DNA of 64,000 nt from Gemmatimonadota bacterium (GCA_046758745.1 JBHIAV010000005.1:32001-96000), one strand, 5' to 3'. Shown: positions 1 to 25,946, counted from the stretch's first letter. Notes: generated from the letters alone by a model not told the origin. Numbers and translations: made by a program.

Positions 1-1628
1 TAGATGTGCCAGTGCTGCCGGATGCCGCTCCGCGCGAAGCCCATCAGCCCCATCAGCCAGGTGAAGGTGACCGCGAGGATGAAGAGCGCGTACTGCGAGC
101 GGGCCGGCATGTGGCCCCAGCGGATGGCGCCGCGCGATTCCGCCCCGCGCATGAGCGCGATGTCGATGAAGACGACGAAGAGGATCGCGGCCAGCACGGC
201 GAGCACCTGGTAGACGCTGAACCCGATGCGCACGATCGCGGTGACGAAGTAGCCGTACACACCGTAGAAGACGACCACCGCCGTCGCGGCGGCCAGCGCG
301 ATCCCCTGCGTGATCGTCCCCGTCCGTGCCCAGCTCACCACCGGGGTCTTGTTGGCCCGCCGGTACAGCATGAAGGAAAGGAAGGTGGTGAGGATCATCA
401 GGTTCACCGCGGTGTTCTTGGCGCTCATCACGCCGAGCACGCCGAGGAAGGGATGGTGCGTCCCTCCCATCGCCGCGATCTCGTCGCGGGTCGCGATCAT
501 GGTGTGCGGGGTAGCCCACACGATCACGCCGAGGACCAGGAGGAGGAGCATCCACTTCACGTACTTCGTGAACCGCTCGGCCCCCGGGATCCTCCCCATG
601 CCGATCCACAGGTAGTAGTTGCCGGCCAAGAAGAGCACCCCGATGAGGAAGGCCTGGACGATCCACAGCCAGCTCATGAAGCCGCCCATCATCGTGATGC
701 CGAGCTGCTCGTTGAACTCGTAGACCTCCCGGCCCAGGTAGTAGCCGGCGAACGGGAGGACGATGAGGGCTCCGATGGCGATGAAGTTCCCCACGTAGCC
801 CATCCAGTCGTAGTGCGCCCGCTCCTCGTCGGTACGGGCGGCGAGGAAGCGGTAGGCGGCGTACGCGCCCACAATGGCCCCGCCGAACACCACGTTGGCG
901 ATGAGCCGGTGGATGTTGATCGGCATCCAGGTGGCGTTGGCGATGGCGCTCCACGTCTGCACGGTGGCCGGGGCCGTGTCCGGTGTCGCCTCGGCGGGCG
1001 GGCTCATCATGTAGGTGAGCCATCCGTTGGCGATGAACATCACCACCGTGCCCCACACGTTGAGCAGGATCCCGAGGCTCCAGTGCCACGCCTTGGCCCG
1101 CCCCGCCTTCCACCGCTCCCACCCGTAGTAGTACAGGTACAGGGTGAACGACTCCAGGAAGAAGAGCCCGACGTACAGCCACATCGAGGGTCCGAAGACG
1201 GCCGTCATGTATGCCCAGAAGACGGGGTACAGGGTCGAGAGGAAGAAGACGAGGATGGCGCCCCAGATCGCCGTGGCGCTGTAGGCGATGAGGAGGAGGC
1301 GGGTGAACTCCCTGGCCAGCCGGTCGTATCTGTCGTCCTTGCCGAAGATCCCGATCGCCTCCACCACCACCGCGAACATCGGAACCCCGAGCACGAAGGC
1401 CGCGAACATGAGGTGCACCTCGGCCGCGATCCACACCGCTCCGCGCGCGCCCACGATCGGGAAGTCTCCGTACGCCCGGACCGCCTCCTGCGCGACGAGC
1501 GGATCGGCCGCGAGCAGCAGCCCGGCGGCGATCGCCCCTCCGACGCCGAAGGCGCGTCTCCCGACCCTCCTACCAGCCGCAGCGGGCGCCCGCACGCGCC
1601 GCGTGCCGAGGCGGGGGGATCTTCTCAC
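1..1628 (-). CDS. Cytochrome bd-like oxidase subunit I (CydA superfamily, non-canonical Nitrospira/OR-N-like); runs off the window edge
   Basis: Not in the ORF track because it has no stop in the window. Manual translation from GTG at 1628, which overlaps the upstream TGA, gives a polytopic membrane protein with EVHLMFAAFVLGVPMFA, FFLESFTLYLYYYGW, WMPINIHRLIAN, GTHHPFLG and RSGIRQHWHI. Confidence 0.85.
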   Translation of the reverse strand, partial: MRRSPRLGTRRVRAPAAAGRRVGRRAFGVGGAIAAGLLLAADPLVAQEAVRAYGDFPIVGARGAVWIAAEVHLMFAAFVLGVPMFAVVVEAIGIFGKDDRYDRLAREFTRLLLIAYSATAIWGAILVFFLSTLYPVFWAYMTAVFGPSMWLYVGLFFLESFTLYLYYYGWERWKAGRAKAWHWSLGILLNVWGTVVMFIANGWLTYMMSPPAEATPDTAPATVQTWSAIANATWMPINIHRLIANVVFGGAIVGAYAAYRFLAARTDEERAHYDWMGYVGNFIAIGALIVLPFAGYYLGREVYEFNEQLGITMMGGFMSWLWIVQAFLIGVLFLAGNYYLWIGMGRIPGAERFTKYVKWMLLLLVLGVIVWATPHTMIATRDEIAAMGGTHHPFLGVLGVMSAKNTAVNLMILTTFLSFMLYRRANKTPVVSWARTGTITQGIALAAATAVVVFYGVYGYFVTAIVRIGFSVYQVLAVLAAILFVVFIDIALMRGAESRGAIRWGHMPARSQYALFILAVTFTWLMGLMGFARSGIRQHWHI

Positions 1629-2986
1629 GATCGGTCCCTGCCTCCGGCGAAGAACGGGAGGCGACGCGAGAAGTCGATCGGCATCTCCGAGCGAATCCTC
1701 TCCATGAGCTCCGGCGTGACGCGGGCGTGCCCCTTCCGGCGGGCGTACGCCTCGACCCGGCTCACCACGACACCCCGCACGAAGGAGGGGATCCGGGCGA
1801 GCCGCGCCTCGGCCTCCGGCGTCCACTCCAGCTCCGGGAGCTGCGCCATGCCGTACAGCACCGCGCGCCGAGGCTCCACCACCGGGAGGTCGCCGGCGGG
1901 CTCGTACGCGCAGGAGGGATCCTCGGCCAGGAAGTCCCCGTCCCGCGCGAAGGCGCGTGCCCGGCACCCGCCGCACACCTTCCGGTACTCGCACCTTCCG
2001 CACTTCCCCCCCAGCTCCCCCTCGCGCAGGAGGCGGAAGAGGGGAGCCGAGCGCCACACCTCCGCGAACCCCTCCGACCGCAGGTCGCCGGCCACGGCCG
2101 GAAGGTAAGGGCAGGGCGTAAGCTTCCCCTCGGGAGTGATCCGGCAGTACTGCACGCCGCATGGGCAGCGGGTGCCGTAGTTGAGGAGAGGCGACTCGGG
2201 GTCGGACTCCCATGCGTGACGCATGATCTGCGGCTGGCACTTCGAGCGGACGAGCATCCGGCCCCGGTATCTCCGCTCCAGGATGACGAGGCCGCGCAGG
2301 ACCTCCTCGTTCTCGACCGGAGCGAGGCCCCGCATCCCCTCACCCCGACCGGTCTGGACCAGGAAGTACACGTTGAACGACACGGCCCCCGCATCGGCGG
2401 CCCACTCGGCCAGTGCGGGTATCTCGTCCCGATTCCCTCGCGTGACCGTCGTCTGGACGATGAAGTCGAGGCGCGCATTCCTCAGCCGTTCCACCGCCCC
2501 CAGCGTCTCCTCCAGCGCTCCGGATCCGTGCCGGAAGCGGTCGTGGTAGCGAGGGTTCAGCGAGTCGACGCTGATCGCCGCCCCGCTCACTCCGGCCTCC
2601 TGCAGGGACTCGATTCGCTCCACGGTCAGCCGCGTGCCGTTCGTCCCGACGACCACCGTGGCGCCCCCCTTGTGGGCGTGTGAGGCGATCGCCTCCAGGT
2701 CGTCGCGGAGGAGGGGCTCGCCCCCGCTGAGGATCAGCAGGGGAGCGGGGTTCAAGGCGAGGATCTCTTCGATGATGCGGAAGCACTCCCCCGTCGTGAG
2801 CTCTCCCTCCGCGGAGTGCCACGTTCCGGCGGAGATATAGCAATGCGCGCACGCGAGATTGCAGCGACGGGTGACGTTCCACGCCACCACGTGGGGAAGG
2901 TAGCCGTCGCCGGCAGCCGGCCGTGCCCCCGGACGCGCCGCCACGAGGGCCTCCGGCCACTCGGGTGCGCCGGCCGGCCCGCTCAC
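1625..2986 (-). CDS. Radical SAM/SPASM protein (AhbD/NirJ-like) with C-terminal PCP_red-like domain
   Basis: WNVTRRCNLACAHCY (CxxxCxxC), SGGEPLLR, SPASM cysteines CPCG..YC..PCPY..KCGRCEYRKVCGGCRARA..DPSC; tail WTPEAEARLARIPSFVRG. Confidence 0.88.
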   Translation of the reverse strand: MSGPAGAPEWPEALVAARPGARPAAGDGYLPHVVAWNVTRRCNLACAHCYISAGTWHSAEGELTTGECFRIIEEILALNPAPLLILSGGEPLLRDDLEAIASHAHKGGATVVVGTNGTRLTVERIESLQEAGVSGAAISVDSLNPRYHDRFRHGSGALEETLGAVERLRNARLDFIVQTTVTRGNRDEIPALAEWAADAGAVSFNVYFLVQTGRGEGMRGLAPVENEEVLRGLVILERRYRGRMLVRSKCQPQIMRHAWESDPESPLLNYGTRCPCGVQYCRITPEGKLTPCPYLPAVAGDLRSEGFAEVWRSAPLFRLLREGELGGKCGRCEYRKVCGGCRARAFARDGDFLAEDPSCAYEPAGDLPVVEPRRAVLYGMAQLPELEWTPEAEARLARIPSFVRGVVVSRVEAYARRKGHARVTPELMERIRSEMPIDFSRRLPFFAGGRDRS

Positions 2987-3098
2987 GTCGCCCTGGACAC
3001 CCGCACCGGAGGCACCGCGACCCTACCCGGCCGCGCGCCGGGGTGGCTCCATGACGCGGAGGGCCCGGCACGGCTGTGTGGGATCGGAGCTCCCCTCA

Positions 3099-5108
3099 CT
3101 ACTCGCCCATCGGCCCGGGAACGTCGGCCTCCTTCCTCATCAGCTCCTCGACGGCGCGCCTCGCCTCCTCGGGGGTGGCCGTCTTGAAGTCCACCGGACA
3201 GCGCTCCACCTGACGCTCGATGTCGCGGATCGGGCAGCGCGTTACCCCCGCCGCCTTCGCCTCATCGATGAACTTCCGCATCTCGGGACTCACCCCATCC
3301 AGTCCCGCCGCCTCCGCCCGCGCCTGCTTCGCCTTGAGCTCGTTGAACATCACGAGCATGGTGTCCATGTCGAACTCGTCGGCTTCGATCATCGCCTGCT
3401 TGTTGTCGTCCATCACCATCGTGGTGACACGCCACATGCCGTGGCGCCGGGCAAAGCGCTCCACCGTGTTGCGGGCGAGAGGGCGCGCGATGAGCGGGAC
3501 CTGGCGGAGACGGTCGTACGCCTCGTGCGTCCACACGACCGGGTCTTCCTCGGTCCGCTCGCGCACGGTGGCGTGTCCGGAATAGGGGCACTTCGTCTCC
3601 ACGGGTCGGGGCGACTCGAAGACGTCCGCGTCGTGCGTCTCCACGACGGTGCGCTTCATCGCCTCCTCCGCCTTCACCTCGGCCAGGGCGAGCTCCTCGG
3701 CATCACCGACACCCATGATGAGCTGCATGTGGGTGGGGAGTAGCCTGCGGATCGCTCGGTCCAGCCACTCGTTCGTGACGGTCGGCAGTTCGGGCGGCGT
3801 GTGCTCCACATTCTCGAGAACGAACTCCTCGACCGCCTTTCGGGCGATCCCGAGCGCAAAGGGAGGGACCCGAAGGATTCGCACCTCGGCCTCCGGCGCC
3901 CACTCCAGACCGGTCTCGCCGTCTTCCTCGATCCATGGGATCTCGTCGGGTCGCACGTCCGTCGTCCCGATGAGGAGCACGCTGCACGGCGCGAGGCGGA
4001 TCAGGTTCTCGGCCTGCGACCCCATCTCCGTGCCGTCGACGCGGTGCGCCCCGTGTCGGGCCAGCACCAGCAGAGTCGGCTCGACCTCCTCGGCCCACTG
4101 GAGCACCACCTGGAAGGGCTTCCCGATGAGGATCTGCGTCGCGAGCTTGACGTCCGGGTACTCCTTCGCCATCGCCTCGGCCCGCTTGAGGTTGGCCTGG
4201 CAGAGACGGAGCAGACCCTTGTCGATGATGTTGTTGTGCAGCTCCTCCTGCTCCTCGAACTTGAAGACCTTCGAGGCCTGCACGGAGAGGACGTCCTTGA
4301 TGTTGTTGAAGACGACGTGGTGGTACTCGACGTCGAAGGCGCTGCACACGAAGAGCTTGGCCCCGAACTCTCGCGCCATCTCCAGCGCCATCCGCATCGC
4401 CTTGTAGCAGTAAGACGATCCATCAATGCACACCATCCACCGTCCGCCCTGTAGCGGCCGGTCGTCACGCACGATGAGGACATCCTTGTGCACCGAACGG
4501 ACCACGCGGGAGACCACGCCGCCGAGCTGCGAGTAGGGCTGACGTCCGATGCCGTGCGCCCCTATGGCCAGGAGGTCGTAGCGTCGCCCGGAAGAGCCGG
4601 CGAGCTTCCGCTCCGAGTCTTCTTCCTCCGCCACGAGGCGACCGGTCTCGCTGATCTTCACGTCGCTGCGAACGACGTCGCCGCCGTCGTATCGGGCGGC
4701 GATGTTCGGATCGAACCCGATGAGGCTCGGGAGCTGGCCGCGGCCCTCGTTCGCCTCCCGGATGATCTCCTCGAAGTTGATCCCCTCGAGGAGCTGCCGG
4801 GTGAGCGGCGCACCCGCCTCCGAGCAGCGCTGGGCGACCCGGTCCAGAAAGCTGTCCGCGATGAGCTGGAGACCCTTCTCGATCAGCTTGTCGTGAATCT
4901 TCCGCTGTCGCTTGATCTCCTCGGAAGTCTGGAAGCGAGCGGGGAGCCCGCTCTCCAGCTGGCGGAAGCGAATGTCGTGGAGCCGCGCTGCGTACACGTG
5001 GTTCGCCGTGATGCGGCCGCCCGACCGCGAGCACAGCTCGATCGCGCGCTCGAGGGCCCAATCAGAGTGGACCGAGTTGTCCACGGGAACGAGCAGCTCA
5101 CGGTACAT
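3099..5108 (-). CDS. Tandem universal stress protein (2x USP) with two PCP_red-like domains and a Cys-Pro-containing tail
   Basis: MYRELLVPVDNS..AL and LLAIGAHG..LGGVVSRVVR (USP1); WMVCIDGS and LLVLARHG..MGSQAENLIRLAPCSVLL (USP2). Start placed at ATG 5108 after a GAGG. Confidence 0.85.
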   Translation of the reverse strand: MYRELLVPVDNSVHSDWALERAIELCSRSGGRITANHVYAARLHDIRFRQLESGLPARFQTSEEIKRQRKIHDKLIEKGLQLIADSFLDRVAQRCSEAGAPLTRQLLEGINFEEIIREANEGRGQLPSLIGFDPNIAARYDGGDVVRSDVKISETGRLVAEEEDSERKLAGSSGRRYDLLAIGAHGIGRQPYSQLGGVVSRVVRSVHKDVLIVRDDRPLQGGRWMVCIDGSSYCYKAMRMALEMAREFGAKLFVCSAFDVEYHHVVFNNIKDVLSVQASKVFKFEEQEELHNNIIDKGLLRLCQANLKRAEAMAKEYPDVKLATQILIGKPFQVVLQWAEEVEPTLLVLARHGAHRVDGTEMGSQAENLIRLAPCSVLLIGTTDVRPDEIPWIEEDGETGLEWAPEAEVRILRVPPFALGIARKAVEEFVLENVEHTPPELPTVTNEWLDRAIRRLLPTHMQLIMGVGDAEELALAEVKAEEAMKRTVVETHDADVFESPRPVETKCPYSGHATVRERTEEDPVVWTHEAYDRLRQVPLIARPLARNTVERFARRHGMWRVTTMVMDDNKQAMIEADEFDMDTMLVMFNELKAKQARAEAAGLDGVSPEMRKFIDEAKAAGVTRCPIRDIERQVERCPVDFKTATPEEARRAVEELMRKEADVPGPMGE

Positions 5109-5423
5109 CGACACCTCGAATCCAGGGGTGCCGCCGCCCAAGTGGGAGCGCGGGAGGCGCCGGGCGTGCGGGAGGGGCGAGCCGCAGGGCCGGTGGTGAC
5201 GCGGCTCCGCCCGCGAAGCAGCGCGCGACGGTCTCGGAGCCGGATCTCCACCTCAGCCCCACGAGCCTCTCGACCCGTCGTTCCCGAGGCCCACTTCGAT
5301 TCCGGCGTAGGGCGCGCGCCGCGCGCGGCGGGCCCGCCTCTATCGGTGAGACGGGCCCCCGCCCGTCCCGAATTCGACTCGAAAGGAGCGCCTCTCCCCT
5401 GACCCGGGAGTGCGCTCGGCGTG

Positions 5424-5454
5424 AGTATATAGCCGCGGCGGCGACAGCTGTCAA
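5424..5454 (-). promoter_or_regulatory. Sigma70-like promoter upstream of the USP-rSAM-bd-like genes
   Basis: Minus strand TTGACA (5454-5449), 17 nt spacer, TATATA (overlapping TATACT). Confidence 0.65.
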
Positions 5455-5549
5455 ACGCCGCCAAACAGGCGCTCTCGAGGCGCGGACGACCCCCCGATCC
5501 ACCGCTCTCCGCGCCCGAGGAACGCTCTCGCCGGCGGGTTCGGATGGGC

Positions 5550-6302
5550 TCACGCAGCCGCTCCGGCGAGCCGGCGGGCGAGGGTCGGCGCCGCCGCGAG
5601 AACAAGCCCCGCCCCCAGCAGGACGACGGCGATGGGCCCGATCCACGAGGCGAGGGGACCGACCCCGCCGGTACCCGTCAGCGCCCGGGTGACCGCAGGG
5701 GACCCCGCCGAGACAGCGAGCAGGCCGTCGTGGAGCGGGCCGAATGGGCTGAGGTGTTCCACCGTCTCGGCCCATGTTCCGGGCCCGGCCGCGCGGAACA
5801 CCCCGCTCAGGTGGAGCGCGAAGAGCGACGCCGCCGCGCACGCGAGGGCGCCCTCGGCGAGCGAGCGCACGAGCGCCGCGATGACACTTCCGAGGAGGTT
5901 TCCGAAGAGAAGCGCGAGCAGCAGCCCCGCCGCGGCGCCGAGGCCCGGCGCCCACGAGGCTCCGGAGACCGCGAGCAGGATGAGGAGGAGGGGCAGGAGC
6001 TGGAGCGCGTCCAGGGCCGCCGCCGCGATCGTACGCTCGGCGAGCCAGGCGCGCTCGCCATACCCGGTCAGCCTCACTTTCTCCACCCAGCCGGACGCCC
6101 CCTCTCGCACGAGCGGGATGCAGCTCCCAAAGGTGGCGAAGAAGACGATGAAGACGCTGAACACGGCCGCCCGGTGCGGTGCGGCCGCCGGACTCGCCGC
6201 CACCGGGAGCAGAAGCGCGACGGGGACGATCACGTTCCAGGCGAAGAGTCGGCGACGCGTGAGGGCGATCCGCCACTCCAGGGCCCACACGCGCCCGATC
6301 AC
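5550..6302 (-). CDS. ABC-2 type transporter permease
   Basis: About six hydrophobic segments, VWALEWRIAL N-terminus and LSPF C-terminal motif; lies directly after an ABC ATPase. Start estimated at GTG 6302. Confidence 0.7.
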   Translation of the reverse strand: MIGRVWALEWRIALTRRRLFAWNVIVPVALLLPVAASPAAAPHRAAVFSVFIVFFATFGSCIPLVREGASGWVEKVRLTGYGERAWLAERTIAAAALDALQLLPLLLILLAVSGASWAPGLGAAAGLLLALLFGNLLGSVIAALVRSLAEGALACAAASLFALHLSGVFRAAGPGTWAETVEHLSPFGPLHDGLLAVSAGSPAVTRALTGTGGVGPLASWIGPIAVVLLGAGLVLAAAPTLARRLAGAAA

Positions 6303-6333
6303 GGGTGCTCCCTCCCCCGACCCTCTCTGTCCC

Positions 6334-7350
6334 TCACGGGCCGCCGCGAGCGGAGAGACCCGTCCCCCGCAGCGCCGTCTCGTCGGGGGCCGGGGCCGCC
6401 CCGTCGAGGGGAACCCCGGCCAGCTCCAGGAAGACGTCGGCAAGGTTCGGCTCGTGCACCCGAATGGAGCGGGGCTCGCACCCGGCCTCGAGCAGGCGTG
6501 CGCACAGCTCCGGGAGCGCGGCGCCCCCCGCGGGTGAAGCGAAGCGTGCTCCCTGCGGATACAGTGCCAGCGTCCGCACCTGCGGCTGCGGTTCGAAGCT
6601 CCTGCTCGGCATCTTTCCCGACACCTCGATCACGGTCTCCTTCGCCAGCCCGGCGATGAGGTCGCGGGGAGGGCCGTCCGCGATGAGCCTTCCGCCGTGC
6701 AGGAAAGCGACCCGGCTGCACGCCGTCTCCACGAACGCCGGATCGTTGGAGGCCACCAGGGCCGCCGCTCCTCTCGACGCCGCATCGGCCATGGCCGCTC
6801 GCAGCGCCGCCACGCCGAGGGGATCCAGCCCGAGCGTGGGCTCGTCGAGCAGGAGGAGGTCGGCTGATGCGGCCACCGCCTCTGCGAGGGCGAGACGGCG
6901 GCGCATCCCGTGCGAGTAGATCGATACCCTTTCCACAGCGCGGTCGGCGAGGCCGAAGTCGCGCAGCGCGCTATCCAGCGCACCGGCCGCTGCCTCGCCC
7001 CCGTGTCCCCTGAGGCCGAGCAGACGGAGAACGTTCTCGCGCCCCGGGAGGGATTCCTGAAACGGAGTGCGGTCGAAGACGACGGCAACCCGCCGGCGGA
7101 GGTGCGACGCCGAGTCGGAGGGCTCGTTCGGGAAGAGGCGTGCCGAGCCCTCGGCCGGAGGGAGCACCCCGGCTACGATGCGGAGAAGGGTCGTCTTCCC
7201 GGAGCCGTTCGGCCCCATCACTCCGAGGACTTCCCCGGCCGCCAGCTGGAGCGTCAGCCCCACCAGAACAGGCGGCCCGTCGGCGTAGCGGTGGCCCAGC
7301 CCGCACAGGGCCAGGACGGGTCCCACCGGGACGGACGGACCTGTCGTCAT
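6334..7350 (-). CDS. ABC transporter ATP-binding protein (exporter type)
   Basis: GPNGSGKTT, YSHGMRRR signature, LLLLDEPTLGLD, C-terminal PNLADVFLELAG. Confidence 0.88.
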   Translation of the reverse strand: MTTGPSVPVGPVLALCGLGHRYADGPPVLVGLTLQLAAGEVLGVMGPNGSGKTTLLRIVAGVLPPAEGSARLFPNEPSDSASHLRRRVAVVFDRTPFQESLPGRENVLRLLGLRGHGGEAAAGALDSALRDFGLADRAVERVSIYSHGMRRRLALAEAVAASADLLLLDEPTLGLDPLGVAALRAAMADAASRGAAALVASNDPAFVETACSRVAFLHGGRLIADGPPRDLIAGLAKETVIEVSGKMPSRSFEPQPQVRTLALYPQGARFASPAGGAALPELCARLLEAGCEPRSIRVHEPNLADVFLELAGVPLDGAAPAPDETALRGTGLSARGGP

Positions 7351-7706
7351 GGGACGAGCGTGTGACCGTCCTCGTCATACACGGTGATCGCGTCCACCGG
7401 ACAGGCGGCGCACGCCCGCAGGAGACGCTCTCGCCCCACCGCCTCCGGAGTCGTCAGCACCGCGATCTCTTCCGCGTCCAGCGCGAACGCCGCCGGCGCT
7501 TCGGCGATGCACTCCGCGAAGCCGACGCACAGGCCCCGGTCGATCGCCACGCGAAGCCTCCCGACCCGGCGGTCGCACCGCGCATCCGCGATGGCTTCCG
7601 GCATCCGGCCCGCAGCGAGGACCGGCGACTGTCCCGGCGCGGCCTCCTCCCGCCGGGCAGCCGCCGACCCGGCACCGCGAGGGGGAGGGGGGACGGATGC
7701 CGTCAC
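7347..7706 (-). CDS. Small single-cluster ferredoxin (3Fe-4S type)
   Basis: VAIDRGLCVGFAECIAEAPAAF...ACAACPVDAITV. Start uncertain (GTG 7706 or ATG 7604). Confidence 0.8.
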   Translation of the reverse strand: MTASVPPPPRGAGSAAARREEAAPGQSPVLAAGRMPEAIADARCDRRVGRLRVAIDRGLCVGFAECIAEAPAAFALDAEEIAVLTTPEAVGRERLLRACAACPVDAITVYDEDGHTLVP

Positions 7707-8152
7707 ATCCCCTCGAGGCCGAGCTCCCGACGTGCCCGATCCATGATGGCGGGAGTGATCTCGGCGATGCCCCGCTCCCTCGCATAGTCGATGTAGATGC
7801 GCTTTACCATCCCGCGCACGAAGGAGGGGACGGCCCCCAGCCGTTCGATCGCCTCCACGCTCCAGCGCACCGTGGCGGCCGACGGCTCGGGCGGTGCGGT
7901 ATCCGCGAACGCCTTCTCCCGGCCCTCCGCCAGAGAGCCCCGCACCATCTCGAAGGGCTGTTCGGGCACCGCACGCCCCCCGATCCGGACCCCGAGGGAG
8001 GCCACGAGCTGCGTCTCCATGGGGTTGGTCAGCAGTCCGACCCGGTGGTCGCACGACGGGCAGCGGAAGGCGGCCGCCAGCGTGCCGTCCCCCGGGAGGT
8101 CCCGCTCCTCGAACACCATCTGCTCGTCGCACTCCACGCACAGGAACTTCAC
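7703..8152 (-). CDS. Zn-ribbon plus PCP_red-like domain protein
   Basis: CVEC...CPSC at the N-terminus; C-terminal WSVEAIERLGAVPSFVRGMVKRIYIDYARERG. Confidence 0.8.
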   Translation of the reverse strand: MKFLCVECDEQMVFEERDLPGDGTLAAAFRCPSCDHRVGLLTNPMETQLVASLGVRIGGRAVPEQPFEMVRGSLAEGREKAFADTAPPEPSAATVRWSVEAIERLGAVPSFVRGMVKRIYIDYARERGIAEITPAIMDRARRELGLEGM

Positions 8153-9036
8153 GCCGCCTCCTCGCCCCCCAGGAGGGTCGCGGCGATCGTCGCCAGTGCC
8201 CTGCCCGCCGGACGATCGAGGGCGCCGAGCGGGTCTCCCTTCTCCGCCAGCGCGGCGCTCTCGGGATCAAGCGGGACGCGCCCGAGCAGCGGGATTCCGA
8301 ACAGCCCGGCCAGAGACTCACCGGCATCGCCTCGGAAAAGAGGCCGCACCGCTCCACACTCCGGGCAGGCGTACCCGGACATGTTCTCGATCACACCCAG
8401 GGCGGGCATGCCCCGCTCCCGGGCCTCGCGGAGGGAACGCTCCACGCTGGCGCGGGACGCGTCCGAGGGGATGGTGACGACCAATGTCCCCGAGAGGTCG
8501 GGAACGAGTTCCGCGAGGTCGATCATGCGCCCCGTACCGGGCGGAAGATCGATCAGAAGGAGATCCAGCTTCCCCCACTCCACGTCCCCCAGGAACTCGC
8601 GCAGTGCCCCCTGCTCCTGCGCTCCCCGCCACACGAAGCTCTCCGAGGCGGGCTCCTTCCAGGCGAGAGGTCGTCCCGCCTCCAGAAGCAGCTCCATCGA
8701 CATGACCCGCACTCCCGCCGGGCTCACCGCCGGCACCACCGCCGATTGCTCCACGCGGAGCTCTCCCGGCGACACCCCCGACAGGCGGGCGGCCGTCGGG
8801 CCGTGAAGGTCGGCGTCGAGCAACCCGACCCGGGCCCCTGCGCGAGCGGATTGGGCGGCCAGCAGGGCTGCCACGAAGCTCTTCCCGACCCCGCCCTTTC
8901 CGCTCATCACGGCCACACAGCGTTCCACCAGCTCGAGGCGCCGGCGCACTTTTTCGCGCTGCGCGGTCACCTGAGCGACGAGGTCGGACCGGTCCCGGCC
9001 GAGGAGCTCCGAGTAGGTGCGGAAACCGATCGTCAC
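8149..9036 (-). CDS. Mrp/ApbC/Nbp35 family P-loop ATPase (Fe-S cluster carrier)
   Basis: SGKGGVGKS, LLDADLHGP, WRG, DLPPGTG, ENMSGYACPEC. GTG start at 9036 overlaps the upstream stop. Confidence 0.88.
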   Translation of the reverse strand: MTIGFRTYSELLGRDRSDLVAQVTAQREKVRRRLELVERCVAVMSGKGGVGKSFVAALLAAQSARAGARVGLLDADLHGPTAARLSGVSPGELRVEQSAVVPAVSPAGVRVMSMELLLEAGRPLAWKEPASESFVWRGAQEQGALREFLGDVEWGKLDLLLIDLPPGTGRMIDLAELVPDLSGTLVVTIPSDASRASVERSLREARERGMPALGVIENMSGYACPECGAVRPLFRGDAGESLAGLFGIPLLGRVPLDPESAALAEKGDPLGALDRPAGRALATIAATLLGGEEAA

Positions 9037-9530
9037 AGGTCCCAGCCGGCGCGGGCCAGCATCCACAGGTTGATGAGCACGACGACCACGGCCGTCACGT
9101 AGAGCGCCGCCGGGAGGCGGGCCTCCGCAACGGGCAGGAAGCCCCGCCGGACGAGGGCGGGGAGGCGGAGCGCGTGAAGGAGCCACACCGCCCGCGCGAA
9201 CCACGGATTCTGCCAGCGCCACAACCCCCAGAAGACGACGGCCACGATGGCCGCGCCGAGGAGGAGCCACACCCAGACCGCACCGCGCTCGGCCGGCAGG
9301 ACGCCGGCCCGAGCCGCGGCGATGACGGCCGCCTCGTACAGGAGTCCGACGTGCAGATAGACAAACGCCGCCTGCCGGAACTTGACGGCCCGCGCCGGCG
9401 CGTGAGGCAACCTTCGCGCCCGGCGAGCCGCCGGCTCGGCCGAACCGGGCCCGTCCGCCACCGCGCCTTCCGGACTCTCCGCCGCTCGGCTCCCCGCCAT
9501 ACTCTCTTCCGTCTGGGGTCTTTCGCTCAC
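9033..9530 (-). CDS. Hypothetical membrane protein (about 4 TM segments)
   Basis: Hydrophobic segments; translationally coupled to the Mrp gene. Confidence 0.65.
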   Translation of the reverse strand: MSERPQTEESMAGSRAAESPEGAVADGPGSAEPAARRARRLPHAPARAVKFRQAAFVYLHVGLLYEAAVIAAARAGVLPAERGAVWVWLLLGAAIVAVVFWGLWRWQNPWFARAVWLLHALRLPALVRRGFLPVAEARLPAALYVTAVVVVLINLWMLARAGWDL

Positions 9531-9712
9531 CTTACCGGTACAGCTTGCCGGGGCGCCCGCTGTTCCGCAACAGCGGCTGTCCCGCCGCGCCGCCGCGCGC
9601 TAGTTTTCTGGGTGTAGGGTGCCGCGAAGCGGCGCTTTCTCTGCCTGGGGTGCGGCGAGCCGGCACGTGGCAGTGCACACGCGTCCCGCGGCATGGAACA
9701 TGAGGAGGCGAC

Positions 9713-9916
9713 GTGTCCCTCATCGGCTTTCACAGGGTTCTGATCGGGAGCGCGATTCTCTTCTGCGCGCTCTTCGCAGTGTGGGAGGGGTGGCGATACC
9801 TGCAGGCGGGAGGCGCGGCCGAGCTCACCCTCGCCGTCGTGTTCGGAGTCCTCGCCTGCTCCCTCGCGTACTATCTGGCGAGGCTCAACCGCTTCCTCGG
9901 ACGCGAATCTTCTTGA
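9713..9916 (+). CDS. Small 2-TM membrane protein
   Basis: Strong RBS (GAGGAGG) before GTG; two hydrophobic helices. Confidence 0.65.
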   Translation: MSLIGFHRVLIGSAILFCALFAVWEGWRYLQAGGAAELTLAVVFGVLACSLAYYLARLNRFLGRESS

Positions 9917-9985
9917 GGGCGGCGCGTCCCCGGCGACCCGCCGCCCGCGCCGGGGCTGCCGACTGACCGAGGCTTCCGAGCCGGC

Positions 9986-10618
9986 GTGAGCGACGAGGTC
10001 GGCGCCGGCGGGAGTCCCGCCTGGCTCCTCGGCGCGGCGGCGCTCTTCCTCCTGCTCCTGGCGGCTCTCGTCGCGACCTCCCTGTGGCGCCGCGAACCTC
10101 CGGCCTTTCCCATCACCCACCGGACGCCTCAAGAGGCGGGAGACTCGCTCGGCCGAGGCCTCGTGACGCTCGACGCACGGGACCGGCGCGCCTGGGTGCG
10201 CTTCGACTTCTCCCGCTCCGCGGTCGTGGAGAGCGGGGAGCCGGCGGGCTGGGATGTGGCCGCTCGCCGCCATCGATTGATCGTCAACGGTGGCCAGGGC
10301 TTCGCCGGGCACGGAGGCGTGATCGAGGTCACCGGCACGCCGTACGAGGCGGTGGGCGAGGCACCCGACGAGGGGTACACGGGATCCAGGGTCACCGCGG
10401 GAGGCGACTCGGTCAACTCCGTCTTCGACGGCTGGTACCGCTACGGCTTCTTCTCTCACCTGCTCGAGCCGAAGCCGGCCACGTACATCGTGCGAACGGC
10501 AGACGGAAGATATGCGAAGCTGCGCATCCTCAGCTACTACTGTCCGGGAGCGGAGCCCGGCTGCCTCACCTTCGAGTACAGCTACCAGGGAGCGGGCGGA
10601 ACGAGGCTGGCGCCCTAG
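9986..10618 (+). CDS. HmuY-like heme-binding protein with N-terminal membrane anchor
   Basis: LDARD..WVRFDFS, WDVAARRHRLIVNGG and WYRY...YIVRTADGRYAKLRILSYY resemble HmuY family motifs. Confidence 0.75.
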   Translation: MSDEVGAGGSPAWLLGAAALFLLLLAALVATSLWRREPPAFPITHRTPQEAGDSLGRGLVTLDARDRRAWVRFDFSRSAVVESGEPAGWDVAARRHRLIVNGGQGFAGHGGVIEVTGTPYEAVGEAPDEGYTGSRVTAGGDSVNSVFDGWYRYGFFSHLLEPKPATYIVRTADGRYAKLRILSYYCPGAEPGCLTFEYSYQGAGGTRLAP

Positions 10619-11121
10619 TCGTCCGACAGCTCCCTGATGCGAGTCACCAGGCGCGAGGTCGAGCGTTCCGGCACAAGCGGGAGCACGTGCACCTCGCCAC
10701 CCGCCGCGAGCACGTCGGGGCCGCCCACGATCTCCTGTGGTCCGTAGTCGCTCCCTTTTACAAGCACGTCGGGGAGCAGCTTCCGGATCAGCTCGAGCGG
10801 CGTGTCCTCGTCGAACACGGTGACAGCGTCCACGCAGCGGAGCGCGGCGAGGATCACCGCCCGGTCCCCCGCCGTCTGGAACGGCCTGCCTCTTCCCTTG
10901 ACCCGGCGCGCCGAGGCATCCGAGTTCACTGCCACCACGAGTCGATCACCCAGGCGGCGAGCCTCCTCGAGACACCGGATGTGCCCGGCGTGCAGGAGGT
11001 CGAACACCCCGTTCGTGAAGACGAGCCGGTGGTCGCGAGGCCTTCCGTACGTCGCGCACAGCGCCGGCCGGGCGAGCACGCGCCCCATGCCCGGTACGCG
11101 GCGTTCCTCGCCGCCCCTCAC
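10615..11121 (-). CDS. rfaE2: D-glycero-beta-D-manno-heptose 1-phosphate adenylyltransferase (RfaE domain II / HldC)
   Basis: LVFTNGVFDLLHAGH, VAVNSDASARRVKG, PDVLVKGSDY, STS. Confidence 0.9.
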   Translation of the reverse strand: MRGGEERRVPGMGRVLARPALCATYGRPRDHRLVFTNGVFDLLHAGHIRCLEEARRLGDRLVVAVNSDASARRVKGRGRPFQTAGDRAVILAALRCVDAVTVFDEDTPLELIRKLLPDVLVKGSDYGPQEIVGGPDVLAAGGEVHVLPLVPERSTSRLVTRIRELSDD

Positions 11122-12074
11122 CTCGGGTCCCTCGCACGGCGCCCGAGCAGCTCTCCCGCTCCTCGCTCGAGGAGTCGTTCGGCGAGCGCCCTCCCGATCG
11201 CCGCCGGCTCGAACGCCGAGCCGGAGAGCGCATCTCGGATGGCGACCCGCCCGTCGGGCGAGAAGACGGCGGCGGCGGCGCGCAGGCGCGGCCCCTCCAC
11301 CTCCGCGAATGCCCCAACCGGGATCTGGCACCCCCCTCCGAGCGCTGCCAGCAGGCTCCGCTCGCACTCGACCGCGGTCCTCGCTTCCCGGCTCTCGATC
11401 GCCGCCAGCAGGCGAGCCGACTCTTCGTCCGAGGCCCGTGCCTCCACGCCGAGGGCGCCCTGCCCCACGGCCGGGAGCCATTCCGGCGGTTCGAGCCGGG
11501 CGAGATGCCGGTGCGGGAGGCCAAGCCGCCGCAGTCCGGCCGCCGCCAGGATGATCGCGTCGTACTCCCCGTCCCGACACTTGCGAAGGCGGGTTTCGAC
11601 GTTCCCCCTGATGCTCCGAACCTCGCAGTCCGGCCGCCGGGCCAAGAGCTGCGCGACGCGCCTCAGGGAGGAGGTGCCGAGCACGCTACCTGCCGGAAGA
11701 TCCTCGAGTCCTCCCCTTCCCTCCCGGCGGATGAGCAGGTCGGCTGCGTCCGAGCGCTCTGGAACGCATGCCAGGCAGAGCCCCGCCGCCAGGTCGGTCG
11801 GGAGATCTTTGAGGGAGTGCACCGCGGCGTCGATCTCCCCCCGCAGGATCCGCCTCTCCAGCTCGGCGGTGAAGAGACCCTTGCCGCCGATCTCGGGAAG
11901 CGGTCGATCGATCGATCGATCCCCCTCGGTCTCCACGCCGACGATCTCCACGACGAGACCGGGCCAGGCCGTCCGCACCCGCTCGGCGACGACCTCGCTC
12001 TGGGCCATAGCGAGCCGCGACCGGCGCGAGCCGATGATGAACCGGGAACGGGAGAGCTCTGGCATGGCCGCCAT
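11118..12074 (-). CDS. hemC: Hydroxymethylbilane synthase
   Basis: GSRRSRLAMAQ, GGKGLFT, AVHSLKDLP, GTSSLRR, IRGNVETRL, GGCQIP. Confidence 0.95.
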   Translation of the reverse strand: MAAMPELSRSRFIIGSRRSRLAMAQSEVVAERVRTAWPGLVVEIVGVETEGDRSIDRPLPEIGGKGLFTAELERRILRGEIDAAVHSLKDLPTDLAAGLCLACVPERSDAADLLIRREGRGGLEDLPAGSVLGTSSLRRVAQLLARRPDCEVRSIRGNVETRLRKCRDGEYDAIILAAAGLRRLGLPHRHLARLEPPEWLPAVGQGALGVEARASDEESARLLAAIESREARTAVECERSLLAALGGGCQIPVGAFAEVEGPRLRAAAAVFSPDGRVAIRDALSGSAFEPAAIGRALAERLLERGAGELLGRRARDPR

Positions 12075-13687
12075 CAGAGAACCCGCCCCGGAAGGCGGCC
12101 GGGCCTACGGGCCGCGGCCACCGCCTCCCGCAGGTCCTTTCGCTGGAAGAGGATCTTGAGGAAGGGCGGCACGATGAAGGTGGAGAGAATCACCATGATG
12201 AGGATCGCGCTGTACACCGCGTTCGACAGGATCCCCGCCGTGAGACCGATCGAAGCGAAGATGAGCCCCACCTCACCCCGCGGGATCATCCCCACCCCCA
12301 CCAGCAGCTTGCTGGTGTCCCGCCGCCGCACCGCCAGACCGGATACGATCTTTCCGATGACCGCGATCACGGTGAGGATGAGGCCGACTGCCAGGACGGC
12401 CAGATCGAAGTCGTCCGATCCGGGAATGAACAGCTTCACGTTCACAGGCGCGCCCACCGCCACGAAGAAGATCGGGGTGAACACGTCGGCCACCGGCTCG
12501 ATCCGCTCCACCACCGCGTCGAACTGGTTCGTCGAGGAGAGCACGATCCCGGCGGCGAACGCTCCGATGATCATTGCGGATCCCGCCCAGTCGGCCAGCG
12601 CCGCCACCCCGAGCGCGAAACAGAAGGCCGTAACGAGCAGAACGCCGCGCACACGCATGCGATCCACGTAGTTGAACAGCGCCGGTGCGAACCGATTCCC
12701 GATCACCACGGCGAGGACGAGGAAGCCGACCGCGAAGAGGAAGATCTTCCCGATCGACAGGACGCCGACGGCGACGCCGCCCGCGAGCCCCGATACGACG
12801 GCGAGGATCACGATGCCCATCACGTCGTCGATGACCGCCGCCCCGATGATGATGCGCGCCTCGGGGGTACTCATCTTCTTGAGGTCCGCCAGGACGCGCG
12901 CGGTGATGCCGACGGAGGTGGCCGTGAGCGTCGCACCCACGAAGACGGCGACGATGGCGAAGGTGATTCCCTGCGGGTGGGCCCCGATACCGGGATTGAT
13001 CATGTACCAGTAGAGAAAGCCGAGCCCGAAGGGCACGACGACGCCGACCGTCGCGACGGAGAAGGCGGTCGGGCCCACATGGAACATCTCCTTGAGGTCC
13101 GTCTCGAGCCCGATCTCGAAGAGGAGGATCGCCACTCCGATCTCGGCGAAGATCTGGACGATCTCCCCGGTGGGTGTGTCGAACGGCGGCACGACCCCGA
13201 GCAGGCTGCTGCCGAGGACCACCCCGGCGACCAGCTCGCCGAGCACCGCCGGCTGTCCGCGCCGCTCCGCGAACTCGCCGAACAGCTTCCCGAGAAGGAG
13301 AATGGCGATGAGGACAAAGAAGACGTCGCGGACCCTCAGCCCGTCTTCCGCCTCTCCCGTCGAGTCGTGCGCGTTCTGCAGCGCCGGCCGGCCGGCCTCC
13401 CGGGCCGTTTCCGTCAGCCCGGCCCCGGTGTCCGCGCCCCCCCTTACCCCTTCCGCTCCCCGCCCCCGGCTCCTCGGTTCCGCGGTCCGGATCGCCCCGG
13501 GTGTGCCTCCGGCCGCTCGCCCCGTGCCTGCCGCGCCGGCGAGCAGCGGAGCCGGGGAGACAGGCGCTTCGCCCCCCGCCCGGCCCGCTCCGCCCGCGAT
13601 GACGAAGCACAAGCCGAGCGCGACGAGGCCGCGTCGCCAGAGCCTCCGGGTGCTCGCGCGCCGGCCTCGCCCCCTGCCGACTCTCAC
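12074..13687 (-). CDS. Cation:proton antiporter (CPA2/NapA family)
   Basis: GELVAG, LLFEIGLET, ATSVGITARVL, GAAVIDD, GMIPRGEVGL. Start uncertain. Confidence 0.9.
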   Translation of the reverse strand: MRVGRGRGRRASTRRLWRRGLVALGLCFVIAGGAGRAGGEAPVSPAPLLAGAAGTGRAAGGTPGAIRTAEPRSRGRGAEGVRGGADTGAGLTETAREAGRPALQNAHDSTGEAEDGLRVRDVFFVLIAILLLGKLFGEFAERRGQPAVLGELVAGVVLGSSLLGVVPPFDTPTGEIVQIFAEIGVAILLFEIGLETDLKEMFHVGPTAFSVATVGVVVPFGLGFLYWYMINPGIGAHPQGITFAIVAVFVGATLTATSVGITARVLADLKKMSTPEARIIIGAAVIDDVMGIVILAVVSGLAGGVAVGVLSIGKIFLFAVGFLVLAVVIGNRFAPALFNYVDRMRVRGVLLVTAFCFALGVAALADWAGSAMIIGAFAAGIVLSSTNQFDAVVERIEPVADVFTPIFFVAVGAPVNVKLFIPGSDDFDLAVLAVGLILTVIAVIGKIVSGLAVRRRDTSKLLVGVGMIPRGEVGLIFASIGLTAGILSNAVYSAILIMVILSTFIVPPFLKILFQRKDLREAVAAARRPGRLPGRVL

Positions 13688-13746
13688 GGCCTACCGGGTC
13701 CGCTCGCCCGGCCGGGCTCCGCCGCGGACGGTCCGGCCGCGAGCGC

Positions 13747-14253
13747 TTACCACTGGGACTGCGCCCCGTCCACGATCTTCTGGATGAGGTTCTCGAGCGC
13801 CAGCTGCTGACCCTCGTCCTCCGTCTCCGTCTCGGGGTCGTACTCGCCCACGCCGGTCACCGAGGGAGCGTTCCAGATCACCTCGTTGCGCTGCAGGTCG
13901 ATGATCTCCACACGGGCCCGAATCGTGATCCGCCGCTGGAACACGTCGGCTCCGACATCCTCGCGAGCCTCGAAGTTCAGCGCGCGGTCGGCGTACCCGG
14001 TGATGGTCGCGCGGATCACGGAGTCCGCGTCCCCCTCCGAGGCGAGCTGCACACCTAGGCGACCGCGCGCGGCGTCGAGAAGACCCTGAGTGAGCTGTTC
14101 CGTGAGGGTGAAGCGGGTCGTCTGATTCTCGACCGGAGGGACGAACATGGTGTGGACATGCGAGGGAAGGCCCCCTCCCCCGGAGAAGGTGTAGTTGCAG
14201 CCGGCCAGAGCGAGGACGAGAGCGAGCCGGCTAACGCGAAGACGTGAGCTCAT
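13747..14253 (-). CDS. lptE: LPS assembly lipoprotein LptE-like
   Basis: Lipobox LAGC followed by NYTFSGGGGLPSH..FVPPVENQT. Confidence 0.75.
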   Translation of the reverse strand: MSSRLRVSRLALVLALAGCNYTFSGGGGLPSHVHTMFVPPVENQTTRFTLTEQLTQGLLDAARGRLGVQLASEGDADSVIRATITGYADRALNFEAREDVGADVFQRRITIRARVEIIDLQRNEVIWNAPSVTGVGEYDPETETEDEGQQLALENLIQKIVDGAQSQW

Positions 14254-15019
14254 AGATCTCTTTCGGGTGAGGCGCGGTGGCCCGTACTTTCCCCATCTCC
14301 CATCTAACGCGGCTCCGGGCGGCGAGGTCCCGATACTCGGCTCTGCGGGGCCACTCCCCCTCGGCATGCCACTCGACGACTACCCTCCGGAGAGTGCGGC
14401 CGGCTCTTCGCTGCTCGAGCCGTCGCAGGCGTCCCTCGCGCAGGAAGAAGTACGTGGTCTCGCTCCGGTCGTTCCCATACACCAGCACCTCGTCCTCTCC
14501 GGAAACGTATCCGCGGGTCGGCTCCGGGGCGGCCGGCCGGAAGATGCCGGCCATCGCGTACAGGAATGGCGGGGACGGCAACTCGACATCCTCGATCTCG
14601 CCGAGGGTGGCGAGGGAATCGCCCGCCAGGGAGACGGCGAGGGCCAGGTCGCCGGAGGTGAACAGGTCCAGTCGCAGGCTGTCGGGGGGGTTGAAGCGCG
14701 CGATCCCCTCCCCTTCCACCCGCCCGCGGCGGTCGCCGTACCGCCACTCGAATCGCACCGTCGCCGGCGTCACCGCACCGCCGAGGGAAGCCCGACGGAC
14801 CACGGCCACGGGATCGTCGAGAGGCGGGCCCGTCCCGACAAACCCGGTACAGCCGGTCGCCGTCAACACGCTCGCCACCAGCGCCCCGACCCGAAAGCGG
14901 TCCCGGGGGGGCAAAAAGCCCGGAAGGCACGGGCGCTGACGCAGGGGGGCGAGCAGAGGAAGGGGGCCGCGACAGCTCATCCGGAGCGACCATCCGGGCG
15001 GCGGCCGCTCAGCTCGCAT
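14231..15019 (-). CDS. Hypothetical lipoprotein-like protein (beta-rich, possibly LolA/LolB-like fold)
   Basis: LTATGC lipobox-like motif, PPDSLRLDLF; coupled to its neighbours. Start uncertain. Confidence 0.5.
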   Translation of the reverse strand: MRAERPPPGWSLRMSCRGPLPLLAPLRQRPCLPGFLPPRDRFRVGALVASVLTATGCTGFVGTGPPLDDPVAVVRRASLGGAVTPATVRFEWRYGDRRGRVEGEGIARFNPPDSLRLDLFTSGDLALAVSLAGDSLATLGEIEDVELPSPPFLYAMAGIFRPAAPEPTRGYVSGEDEVLVYGNDRSETTYFFLREGRLRRLEQRRAGRTLRRVVVEWHAEGEWPRRAEYRDLAARSRVRWEMGKVRATAPHPKEIYELTSSR

Positions 15020-15467
15020 GCTCCGCCGGCCGGGCAGCGCCGTCGGCTCGCGCGAGCTCCTCCAACGCCTTCCGCAGCTCGGCCGGCATTCGCCGCGGTC
15101 TCCCCGCGACGTCCGTGCACACCAGGTCGGTGGATGCGCGGGCGAGAAGCTCCCCGTCGGAACTCCGCAACACGTCGTACAGGAAGGTCACGGAGCGACT
15201 GCGCACGGCGCTGACTCGCGTCTCGACGGCCACGAGCTCCTCGTACTCCGCTCCCCGTCGGTACTCGACCTCCAGGCGGGAGACGGGCAGGAGGATTCCT
15301 CTCCTTTCCAGCTCCGCGTACGAGATGCCGCTCTCCCGCATCAGGGCGGTGCGACCCAGCTCGCACCAGACCACGTAGGCTCCGTGATGTGCCCTTCGCA
15401 TCTGGTCTGTCTCGGCGTAGCGAACCCGAACTTCGACCCGCCCGCCGCATTTCGCCTCGTCTCTCAT
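15009..15467 (-). CDS. Acyl-CoA thioesterase (YbgC/4HBT family)
   Basis: VRVRYAETDQM..AHHGAYVVWCELGRT. Confidence 0.88.
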   Translation of the reverse strand: MRDEAKCGGRVEVRVRYAETDQMRRAHHGAYVVWCELGRTALMRESGISYAELERRGILLPVSRLEVEYRRGAEYEELVAVETRVSAVRSRSVTFLYDVLRSSDGELLARASTDLVCTDVAGRPRRMPAELRKALEELARADGAARPAEHAS

Positions 15468-15630
15468 CGGCCTGAACAGAGGGAGATCCCCTCGCCTCGC
15501 GCAAGGGGCGGGGAGCGAGGGACGCTCCGCGCGTGCCCGGCGACGACATGCACCGGTCCCGCCCGCGCCGAACACCGGGACGTCGGCGGCCGCCTTTCCG
15601 GTCTCCGGGGCGGGGATCTATGTTTCATCG

Positions 15631-17983: not shown

Positions 17984-18080
17984 TGGCGGGAGCGTGTGGG
18001 AATCGAACCCACCCGGGACGCTATCCGCACCCCGAAACGGTTTTGAAGACCGCCGGTGACACCAGCCACCATCCGCTCCC
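17984..18080 (-). tRNA. selC: tRNA-Sec (anticodon UCA)
   Basis: 97 nt, GGGAGCGG...CTTCAAA anticodon loop, long variable arm, extended D-stem, GGTTCGATTCC T-loop, 3' GCCA. Confidence 0.95.
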
Positions 18081-25572: not shown

Positions 25573-25579
25573 ATGGTGA

Positions 25580-25946
25580 TGGAGGTGCCGGGAATTGCAC
25601 CCGGGTCCGCGAACCCATCGATCGCAGTCGCTACGTGCGTAGTCGGAGATTCAATCTCGTCGGAGTCGGGCTCACCGACGGCCCGTCACCGACCAGCCGC
25701 TATCGGCTTTACGCCATCTCGCCCCCTGCGCGCGCGGCACGCGCTGCGGGCCAGCCCGATTCTTCGACGCCCGCCGGCCCGCCTCGGGCCCGGCAGATCG
25801 ACGGACGGACTACGTCAACTTTCGTTACGCAGCCAGTGCCAAGTTATCGTTGGCAGATGTTGTTTTTCCCGGTGTTTCGCGAGGTTCCGAGCACCTCGGC
25901 ACGCTACCACGACCTCAGGAGAACACGTCGAATCTGATTCACCCCC
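25580..25946 (-). ncRNA. ssrA: tmRNA; tag peptide (A)ANDNLALAA
   Basis: 5' GGGGGTGAATCAGATTCGAC pairs with 3' CACCTCCA, with a G3:U pair; T-arm CCGGGTGCAATTCCCGG; tag ORF at 25854-25825. Confidence 0.95.

Follow-up and report, generated by a model that had tools for sequence, protein, structure and literature searches.

In a stretch of 64,000 nucleotides from a Gemmatimonadota bacterium (G000:C5:32001-96000, in the following called the window; source genome 3.1 Mb, 87% complete, approximately 70% GC), a radical S-adenosylmethionine (SAM)/SPASM protein (H) and a tandem universal stress protein (USP; G) are encoded directly before a bd-like CydA homologue of the OR-N type (I). Comparative evidence ties G, and in most lineages also H, to the bd-like oxidase. 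Since this set of helper genes is tied to I in the phylum and recurs beside such oxidases in many others, it may well supply or install the haem of the oxidase. A haem-related role in maturation or supply is likely, and the reading we favour, tentatively, is that the G-H module supplies haem to the bd-like oxidase operon or inserts it there. The initial annotation, made from the sequence alone, had proposed a pathway of all neighbouring genes that makes, modifies or delivers a haem or metal cofactor exclusively for this oxidase. The haem-related part of this proposal is likely to hold, whereas the strict dedication to the oxidase is not supported.

All genes that had been named in that annotation are indeed present and, with the exception of the HmuY-like gene, lie on the minus strand, as judged by Pfam matches and by frame analysis based on the GC content of the codon positions, especially the third one. 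We designate them A to I in the order of transcription, A being the first gene of the run. G (3099..5108) consists of tandem USP domains (PF00582, 117.8 bits) followed by two PCP_red domains (PF08369, 53.7 bits). H (1625..2986) combines the radical SAM core (PF04055, 100.6 bits) and a SPASM domain (PF13186, 31.6 bits) with a C-terminal PCP_red domain (PF08369, 56.3 bits), and I (3..1628 in the window) matches the CydA family (PF01654, 79.8 bits). The GTG start codon of I at position 1628 overlaps the stop codon of H within a GTGA, just as initially described, and is preceded by a GGAGG approximately 12 nucleotides upstream. Through this overlap, H appears to be translationally coupled to I.

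Within the phylum, we compared a near sample, consisting of the 30 nearest genomes and the source genome, with a wide sample of 121 evenly spread Gemmatimonadota genomes of at least 85% completeness. H orthologues with 63-71% identity are located directly beside I in 15/15 same-family genomes that possess either gene, and three same-family genomes have neither of them. Of the 31 near genomes, 18 carry G together with I, 12 carry neither of the two, and one fragmented genome has I at a contig edge without G. The order [HmuY<] [A] B C D [E F] G H I J K L M, where J to M are the genes following I, is found in 12 same-family loci and is also kept in two loci of the sister family. One sister-family genome possesses B, C, D, G and I without H. 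In the wide sample, 32 of the 121 genomes carry I. Exactly these 32 also possess an H orthologue (E ≤ 1e-80), which invariably lies between G and I on one contig. G was detected in 31 of these 32, and the contig of the 32nd begins inside H. Neither G, H nor I was found in 88 of the 121 genomes, and one other has a weak, partial G-like match. The distribution over the families is patchy (f1, 5/5; f3, 21/55; f4, 1/28; f6, 3/9; f9, 1/1) and the three genes occur together; therefore, they have been gained and lost together. Related genomes are not independent observations in such counts within a phylum, and the kept order in 12 + 2 loci and the presence of G-H-I in 32/32 genomes are more than chance.

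Outside the phylum, 240 relatives of G were found at E ≤ 1e-30 among 1.84 billion representative proteins. A scan of the G alignment against one genome per species resulted in 565 stretches with relatives, of which the best 80 were kept. These 80 loci carry 15 taxon labels, none of them is Gemmatimonadota by title, and they were annotated with phmmer and a home-made PCP_red model. H adjoins G in 67 of the 80 loci, and I is located at a distance of at most 10 kb from G in 26 of them, covering 10 of the 15 taxon labels in three different arrangements. In SAR324, Fibrobacteria, Nannocystaceae and Nitrosomonadales the genes are arranged as I-J-K-L-(M)-H-(C)-G. In 10/16 loci from Gammaproteobacteria and 2/2 from Parvularculaceae, K-J-I is divergent from G-H, and the gammaproteobacterial G-H is preceded by a HEAT-repeat gene and M (K-J-I / M-G-H). 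The third arrangement, G-E-F-I-I without H, is present in 10 loci from Dormibacterota, Chloroflexota, Binatota and one metagenome-assembled genome (MAG) labelled 'Actinomycetes'; in the Dormibacterota locus L038 the first I is confirmed by Pfam, and the second one, which has no Pfam match, was recognized solely by phmmer. In 19 proteobacterial loci, the gene after H is of the HemY type (TIGR00562, 252.6 bits in locus L028, positions 14199-15632). Of 15 genomes without I in the G locus, 12 possess it elsewhere. In keeping with the initial annotation, the association with bd-like oxidases is near-perfect in Gemmatimonadota and extends to 10 other labelled lineages. G thus turns out to be the constant partner, occurring together with H, the oxidase or both; it is this protein, not the whole run of genes, that is most widely conserved beside the oxidase.

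Some further neighbours of the module recur in single lineages. The proteobacterial protein with HEAT/PBS-lyase-like repeats encoded before M-G-H has a length of 825 amino acids (locus L028, 6506-8980), and a similar HEAT protein is encoded after G in SAR324 (locus L026, 12367-14637). In Nitrospirota, the neighbours of G-H are a DUF4149 membrane protein and a B12-type radical SAM protein, each of which recurs in most of 42 loci. In Nitrospira (locus L101, 7938-9560 and 13659-14165), the B12-binding radical SAM protein resembles the 'high light acclimation' protein slr0320 with 445 bits, which is below the cut-off.

Concerning the function of H, its sequence places it in the tetrapyrrole-modifying AhbD/NirJ2 clade, apparently as a separate group within it. 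The initial assignment to the AhbD/NirJ type was right insofar as NirJ2 (TIGR04055, 292.9 bits) and AhbD (TIGR04545, 286.5 bits) are the best-scoring NCBIfam families, the cut-off for both being 500 bits. Orthologues of H from three other phyla show the same score pattern (309-321 bits with AhbD), and no peptide maturase family scores as high as the tetrapyrrole enzymes, which make up all the best family matches of H. Like AhbD and NirJ2, H possesses a radical SAM core and a SPASM domain with cysteines for two auxiliary clusters. The radical SAM motif CX3CX2C (C42, C46, C49) and eight further cysteines are invariant in 18 sequences, the cysteines for two auxiliary [4Fe-4S] clusters are intact and the matches to PF04055 and PF13186 are over the cut-off. 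In contrast to these two families, H carries a C-terminal PCP_red domain, is always accompanied by a USP-PCP_red protein, was found with no AhbA, AhbB or AhbC partner and scores only 286-293 bits against the required 500. Since it remains below every family cut-off, any substrate named for H is a candidate. Among solved structures, which include no close relative of H, SkfB and PqqE match its sequence best, and its tail matches 2l09_A, a PCP_red protein that stands alone. The H proteins of Proteobacteria carry three PCP_red domains. A search for a precursor peptide of the ribosomally synthesized and post-translationally modified type in the gap between F and G found no open reading frame (ORF) of at least 25 amino acids conserved between the window and seven related loci.

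The PCP_red domain, which the initial annotation had overlooked, is the common feature of H (56.3 bits), G (two copies, 53.7 bits) and the smaller protein C (48.9 bits), all above the domain cut-off of 32.5 bits. Elsewhere, PCP_red is known as the tail of BchB, a subunit of the dark-operative protochlorophyllide oxidoreductase (DPOR). The C-terminus of BchB/ChlB and the stand-alone protein 2L09 share the domain of approximately 45 residues that is found in H, G and C above the Pfam cut-off. Unlike in DPOR, there is no nitrogenase-like domain and there are no photosynthesis genes here. The PCP_red region corresponds to the last approximately 55 positions of the BchB profile and comes after the BchB helix that is reported to reach the pigment in trans (residues 398-420, PMC12022308). 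Since this helix precedes the PF08369 region, we do not claim that PCP_red touches tetrapyrroles.

The structural model of G (predicted local distance difference test, pLDDT, of 75) suggests a tandem-type USP with the fold of ATP-binding tandem USPs, so that nucleotide binding is predicted. In Foldseek comparisons the N-terminal half matched such proteins, the best matches being Rv2623 (E 1.6e-15) and the ATP-bound TTHA0350 (template modelling score of 0.82, normalized by target). The Gemmatimonadota versions of G contain an insertion of approximately 50-70 residues in the first USP domain (residues ~135-205; window 3600-3850, minus strand), which is modelled with low confidence and is absent from ten distant homologues that were aligned. 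All of the ten distant relatives of G that were scanned possess two USP domains and 2-5 PCP_red domains, and 4/10 also carry a rubredoxin-like ribbon inside G, which amounts to G and C being fused. Protein C itself (7703..8152, minus strand; PF08369) consists of a four-cysteine Zn-ribbon and a C-terminal PCP_red domain, and C5, C8, C31 and C34 are invariant in 12 sequences. We infer that G and C belong together and that C is a split-off Zn-ribbon-PCP_red protein in Gemmatimonadota. A complex prediction for H with C gave a score of 0.38 against 0.00 for the best control, with a contact agreement between runs of at least 83% and a partner pLDDT of at least 63; this is a weak result that we do not count as evidence. 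The mark of 0.38 is reached by 58/80 solved complexes and by 2/110 mismatched pairs, but scores of at most 0.60 include only 7 of the 80 solved complexes and both mismatches.

The oxidase subunit I has a full length of 610 amino acids, of which the window holds the N-terminal 542; the remaining 202 bases past the window start were read from the genome. Its match to PF01654 covers only positions 4-240 of the 418 profile positions and thus ends before the quinol-binding Q-loop region, which is missing. I aligns with the solved CydA chains 5doq_A and 9r2g_A over the first helices only, and the equivalents of His19, Glu99 and His186 of the E. coli CydA are aligned there. A crude hydropathy count results in approximately 11-14 segments, and the OR-N subfamilies N1 and N2 have 14 transmembrane helices. 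The N-terminus of I (window 1454-1628) begins with basic residues, after which come a hydrophobic segment and an AQ(E/D) motif, all before the conserved first CydA helix, and looks like a signal peptide or an extra anchor. A twin-arginine signal was rejected, as the AQ(E/D) ending is kept in the orthologues and the arginine pair is not. In the following respects I agrees with the OR-N family of the cytochrome bd superfamily (Murali, Gennis and Hemp, bioRxiv 10.1101/2021.01.16.426971): only the first CydA helices with the ligands of the oxygen site are kept, the quinol-binding part is missing, there is no second CydA-like gene and the operon contains alternative electron donors (cytochromes c). 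The main text of that preprint describes no OR-N enzyme as characterized and identifies no haems.

On the same strand past I, before the window start, the run continues with three cytochrome c genes, namely J (dihaem, membrane-anchored), K (monohaem, in the membrane) and L (dihaem, fused to an EB_dh domain), and with M, which encodes a protein with a carboxypeptidase-regulatory-like domain; J, K and L carry 2+1+2 CxxCH motifs. After M, the translations were read as subunits I, III and IV of a haem-copper oxidase and the haem o synthase CtaB (8865-14451 of G000:C5:14001-33700, minus strand), these names being taken from the translations themselves. Since the haem-copper oxidase and CtaB are located downstream of the bd-like and cytochrome c genes, approximately 25 kb of one strand are occupied by respiratory chain and haem genes. 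Besides the PCP_red domains, what had escaped the initial annotation is that the run extends to the cytochromes c J to L and the haem-copper oxidase, and that G is the constant partner.

An obvious question is whether H is simply the housekeeping haem synthase of the organism. The source genome encodes ChdC (184 bits), ferrochelatase (HemH, 221 bits) and HemY (291 bits), and a second AhbD-like radical SAM protein is encoded convergently to HemY (TIGR04053, 433 bits with a cut-off of 395; G000:C51:213-2821), which may be the general anaerobic coproheme decarboxylase of the organism. No match to AhbA/B (PF17805) and no match over the cut-off to AhbC (TIGR04546) was found in the 87% complete genome. 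On this gene content we reject H as the housekeeping AhbD of a sirohaem pathway, a possibility the initial annotation had itself raised; H is apparently also not the only route to haem b. A strong HemY is rare in the source family and was found in no other genome of it. Mis-binning of contig C51 was considered and rejected, given its length of 18.7 kb, its GC content of 0.696 and its tetranucleotide correlation of 0.995 to the large contigs. HemJ is present in 2/5 carriers of the module that were tested.

The remaining genes of the run are less tightly linked to the oxidase. B (8149..9036, minus strand) encodes a P-loop Fe-S carrier ATPase of the Mrp/NUBPL type (PF10609, 216.8 bits with a cut-off of 27.1), which stays below the cut-offs for MrpORP (218.8 bits against 450) and ApbC (129.4 bits against 348). 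D (7347..7604, minus strand, with a start at 7604 or 7550) is a small single-cluster ferredoxin (Fer4_13, PF13370, 34.6 bits). A (9033..9530, minus strand) is a membrane protein of 165 amino acids with 3-4 hydrophobic segments that has no Pfam or NCBIfam match and was found by tblastn in just two related loci; a relationship to the DUF4149 protein that follows H in Nitrospirota was discarded, as the two do not align. Of the 80 loci outside the phylum, one has Mrp and not a single one showed the ferredoxin or the membrane protein at E 1e-3, so that these three proteins appear to be Gemmatimonadota additions.

E (6334..7350, minus strand) encodes the ATPase of an ATP-binding cassette (ABC) transporter (PF00005, 98 bits) with matches to DrrA (158.4 bits) and CcmA (104.9 bits) that are both below the cut-off, and F (5550..~6302, minus strand; the start might be 6302, 6290 or 6443) the ABC-2 type permease (PF01061, 34.7 bits). 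The pair is missing from 3/10 related loci spanning that stretch, namely one same-family locus and both sister-family loci. Outside the phylum, F orthologues are found between G and the bd-like genes in the 10 loci with the arrangement G-E-F-I-I. The view of all genes as one system thus has to be given up, given the distribution of Mrp, ferredoxin, membrane protein and ABC pair. CydDC and CcmAB are ABC systems needed for the assembly of cytochrome bd and cytochromes c, respectively. E-F resembles them as an ABC exporter encoded together with a haem protein complex, and E has the sub-threshold CcmA match mentioned above. Unlike CydDC, however, E-F is an ABC-2 type pair and not of the fused CydD/CydC type (E scores 94 bits with CydC and 80.3 bits with CydD, with cut-offs of 329 and 435) and is not present in every related locus.

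The description of the run as largely overlapping is half true: four of the eight junctions show stop/start overlaps of four bases (A/B GTGA, B/C GTGA, D/E ATGA and H/I GTGA), while the other four are gaps of approximately 30 to 440 nucleotides. The divergent HmuY-like gene (9986..10618, plus strand; PF14064, 52.2 bits) and the nearby hemC, encoding porphobilinogen deaminase (11118..12074, minus strand; PF01379, 260 bits) and belonging to the context outside the operon, were both correctly recognized. The HmuY-like gene holds the same divergent position in 7/7 related loci reaching that far, and hemC adjoins the cluster in 3/7 of them. Rfam, promoter and terminator scans of the cluster yielded nothing usable. 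Elsewhere in the window, Rfam identified a tRNA-Sec (17988-18080), a tmRNA (25577-25946) and a cobalamin riboswitch (34607-34736), all on the minus strand. The stretch is contained in four DNA sequencing runs, all from one study, and no RNA run is listed with it.

A link to haem is indicated by the family to which H belongs, by HemY beside it in Proteobacteria and by hemC and HmuY near the cluster in the source genome. In the mechanism we propose, the core would be the cytoplasmic pair of H and G, both equipped with PCP_red, which is joined by C in Gemmatimonadota. H might act on an iron tetrapyrrole by a radical reaction that needs no oxygen, most likely converting coproheme to haem b. G, together with C, could hold H and/or its product and hand the haem to the co-translated oxidase and its three cytochrome c partners. 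Mrp would load the three Fe-S clusters of H and the ferredoxin would reduce it, and the ABC-2 pair E-F might be a transmembrane carrier of haem or a reductant, comparable to CydDC or CcmAB in the case of other cytochromes. HemW, a HemN-like radical SAM protein from a different radical SAM family than H, is a haem chaperone for respiratory enzymes. By analogy, H could likewise be a relative of haem synthases that delivers rather than makes haem for a membrane respiratory complex; we know of no PCP_red or USP partner of HemW.

Several observations weigh against a haem supply that is devoted to the bd-like oxidase, and leave the exclusive link assumed in the initial annotation unsupported. In Nitrospirota, G-H stands apart from the bd-like gene in 42/42 loci (I within 10 kb in 0/42), and in three Nitrospirota genomes with 4-5 copies of I all copies are more than 270 kb away from G-H. 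In 5/5 genomes with the arrangement G-E-F-I-I, no H-like radical SAM protein was detected at E 1e-20, using the same H query that finds relatives down to 30% identity elsewhere, which means that the oxidase can do without H. Conversely, the 4.2-Mb genome of a gammaproteobacterial symbiont has G-H-HemY but no I, and G-H without I is also found in two MAGs of unknown completeness. The source genome itself contains a second I-J-K-L set on contig C12 (~6300-12000 of G000:C12:16001-36000, minus strand), composed of an I paralogue with 54% identity to I and the same three cytochrome c genes, and neither G, H nor any other module gene is located beside it. Moreover, H is under the curated cut-offs of every named family, and the literature we found, as far as its text was accessible, states no function for PCP_red, even for DPOR. 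Finally, five module-bearing relatives show no ChdC, so H could be the general enzyme there, and two G-H-bearing gammaproteobacteria have a true HemN and no ChdC, so a plain anaerobic role in haem b synthesis would be redundant in these two. As a side observation, the paralogous operon of one relative (G011) has its own G-like copy with 60% identity at a distance of approximately 3.5 kb.

Part of these data would fit an H that acts as the oxygen-independent coproheme decarboxylase of the whole cell in a general haem b supply at low oxygen, with G and C as accessory proteins and a gene neighbourhood that merely reflects shared low-oxygen induction. The location of hemN beside the cbb3 oxidase genes in many Proteobacteria is a parallel. 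The isolated G-H in all 42 Nitrospirota loci and in a genome without any bd-like gene, the HemY gene after H in 19 loci and the five relatives without ChdC all accord with such an enzyme, as do the ChdC and ferrochelatase of the source genome, AhbD being established in organisms with the coproporphyrin pathway (PMC13564367). Nevertheless, we consider a general supply unlikely, since H without I occurs in 0/89 Gemmatimonadota genomes of the 121 sampled, which would be odd for a general enzyme, the source genome already has its TIGR04053 protein beside HemY, two gammaproteobacterial carriers have HemN, and G is found beside the oxidase without H. The redundancy of H for haem b in the source genome and in the HemN-bearing Proteobacteria could instead indicate that H, aided by G, turns haem b or coproheme into a modified haem for the oxygen-reducing site of OR-N enzymes, much as NirJ tailors haem d1. 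The separate position of H, which in four phyla scores too low for both AhbD and NirJ2, and its strict linkage to I in Gemmatimonadota would suit such a tailoring enzyme, and the main text of Murali et al. does not describe the cofactors of OR-N enzymes. However, five genomes have G and bd-like genes without H, Nitrospirota keep H far from I, and the His and Glu ligands of the ordinary bd haems are conserved in I, which makes a special haem quite improbable.

An altogether different role would be that of G as a USP sensing hypoxia or the energy state, like the ATP-binding Rv2623, which controls the oxidase or the ABC transporter, with PCP_red as a docking domain and H modifying a protein or peptide. 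The predicted fold of G would be compatible with this, and in the alignment both USP halves keep all or most of G-2x-G-9x-G-S/G, which we take to be the nucleotide motif of USPs. G also occurs beside E-F-I-I without H, SPASM enzymes often act on peptides, and in Nitrospira marina an increase is reported for USP proteins, which may or may not be G orthologues, beside gene clusters induced by low oxygen (PMC8115632). Yet the best matches of H are all tetrapyrrole enzymes ahead of the peptide maturases, no conserved small ORF was found in the F-G gap of eight loci, and HemY follows H in 19 loci; hence, control of regulation or assembly seems a rather remote explanation to us. The supply or insertion of haem for the oxidase operon by G-H is the reading we retain, with the reservations made above.

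Regarding known systems, AhbD likewise occurs in a coproheme-making organism (PMC13564367), which resembles the situation of H. Literature searches for PCP_red, for bd-like oxidases with radical SAM and USP proteins and for cytochrome bd OR-N brought up no account of the module. They covered the main text of Murali et al., which does not mention radical SAM genes (0 occurrences); the operon contexts of that study are described in its supplement.

The bd-like (OR-N) oxidases are thought to be the terminal oxidases of nitrite oxidizers and of many uncultured bacteria. If H only makes haem b, the module would be a modest addition to haem biosynthesis. A far bolder possibility, which we regard as a long shot, is that OR-N oxidases use an undescribed haem that is made by H from coproheme or haem b, with PCP_red serving as a tetrapyrrole-escort module and the ATP-binding G carrying the product to the apo-oxidase. 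If this were true, the G-H pair would represent a new terminal branch of haem biosynthesis in more than 10 bacterial phyla. The module also provides a first functional context for PCP_red outside chlorophyll synthesis and widens the known range of AhbD-like enzymes, which now includes Gemmatimonadota, Nitrospirota and Proteobacteria. A set of helpers from which the oxidase is inseparable in one phylum, and which reappears next to it in many others, offers a concrete route to understanding the OR-N enzymes.

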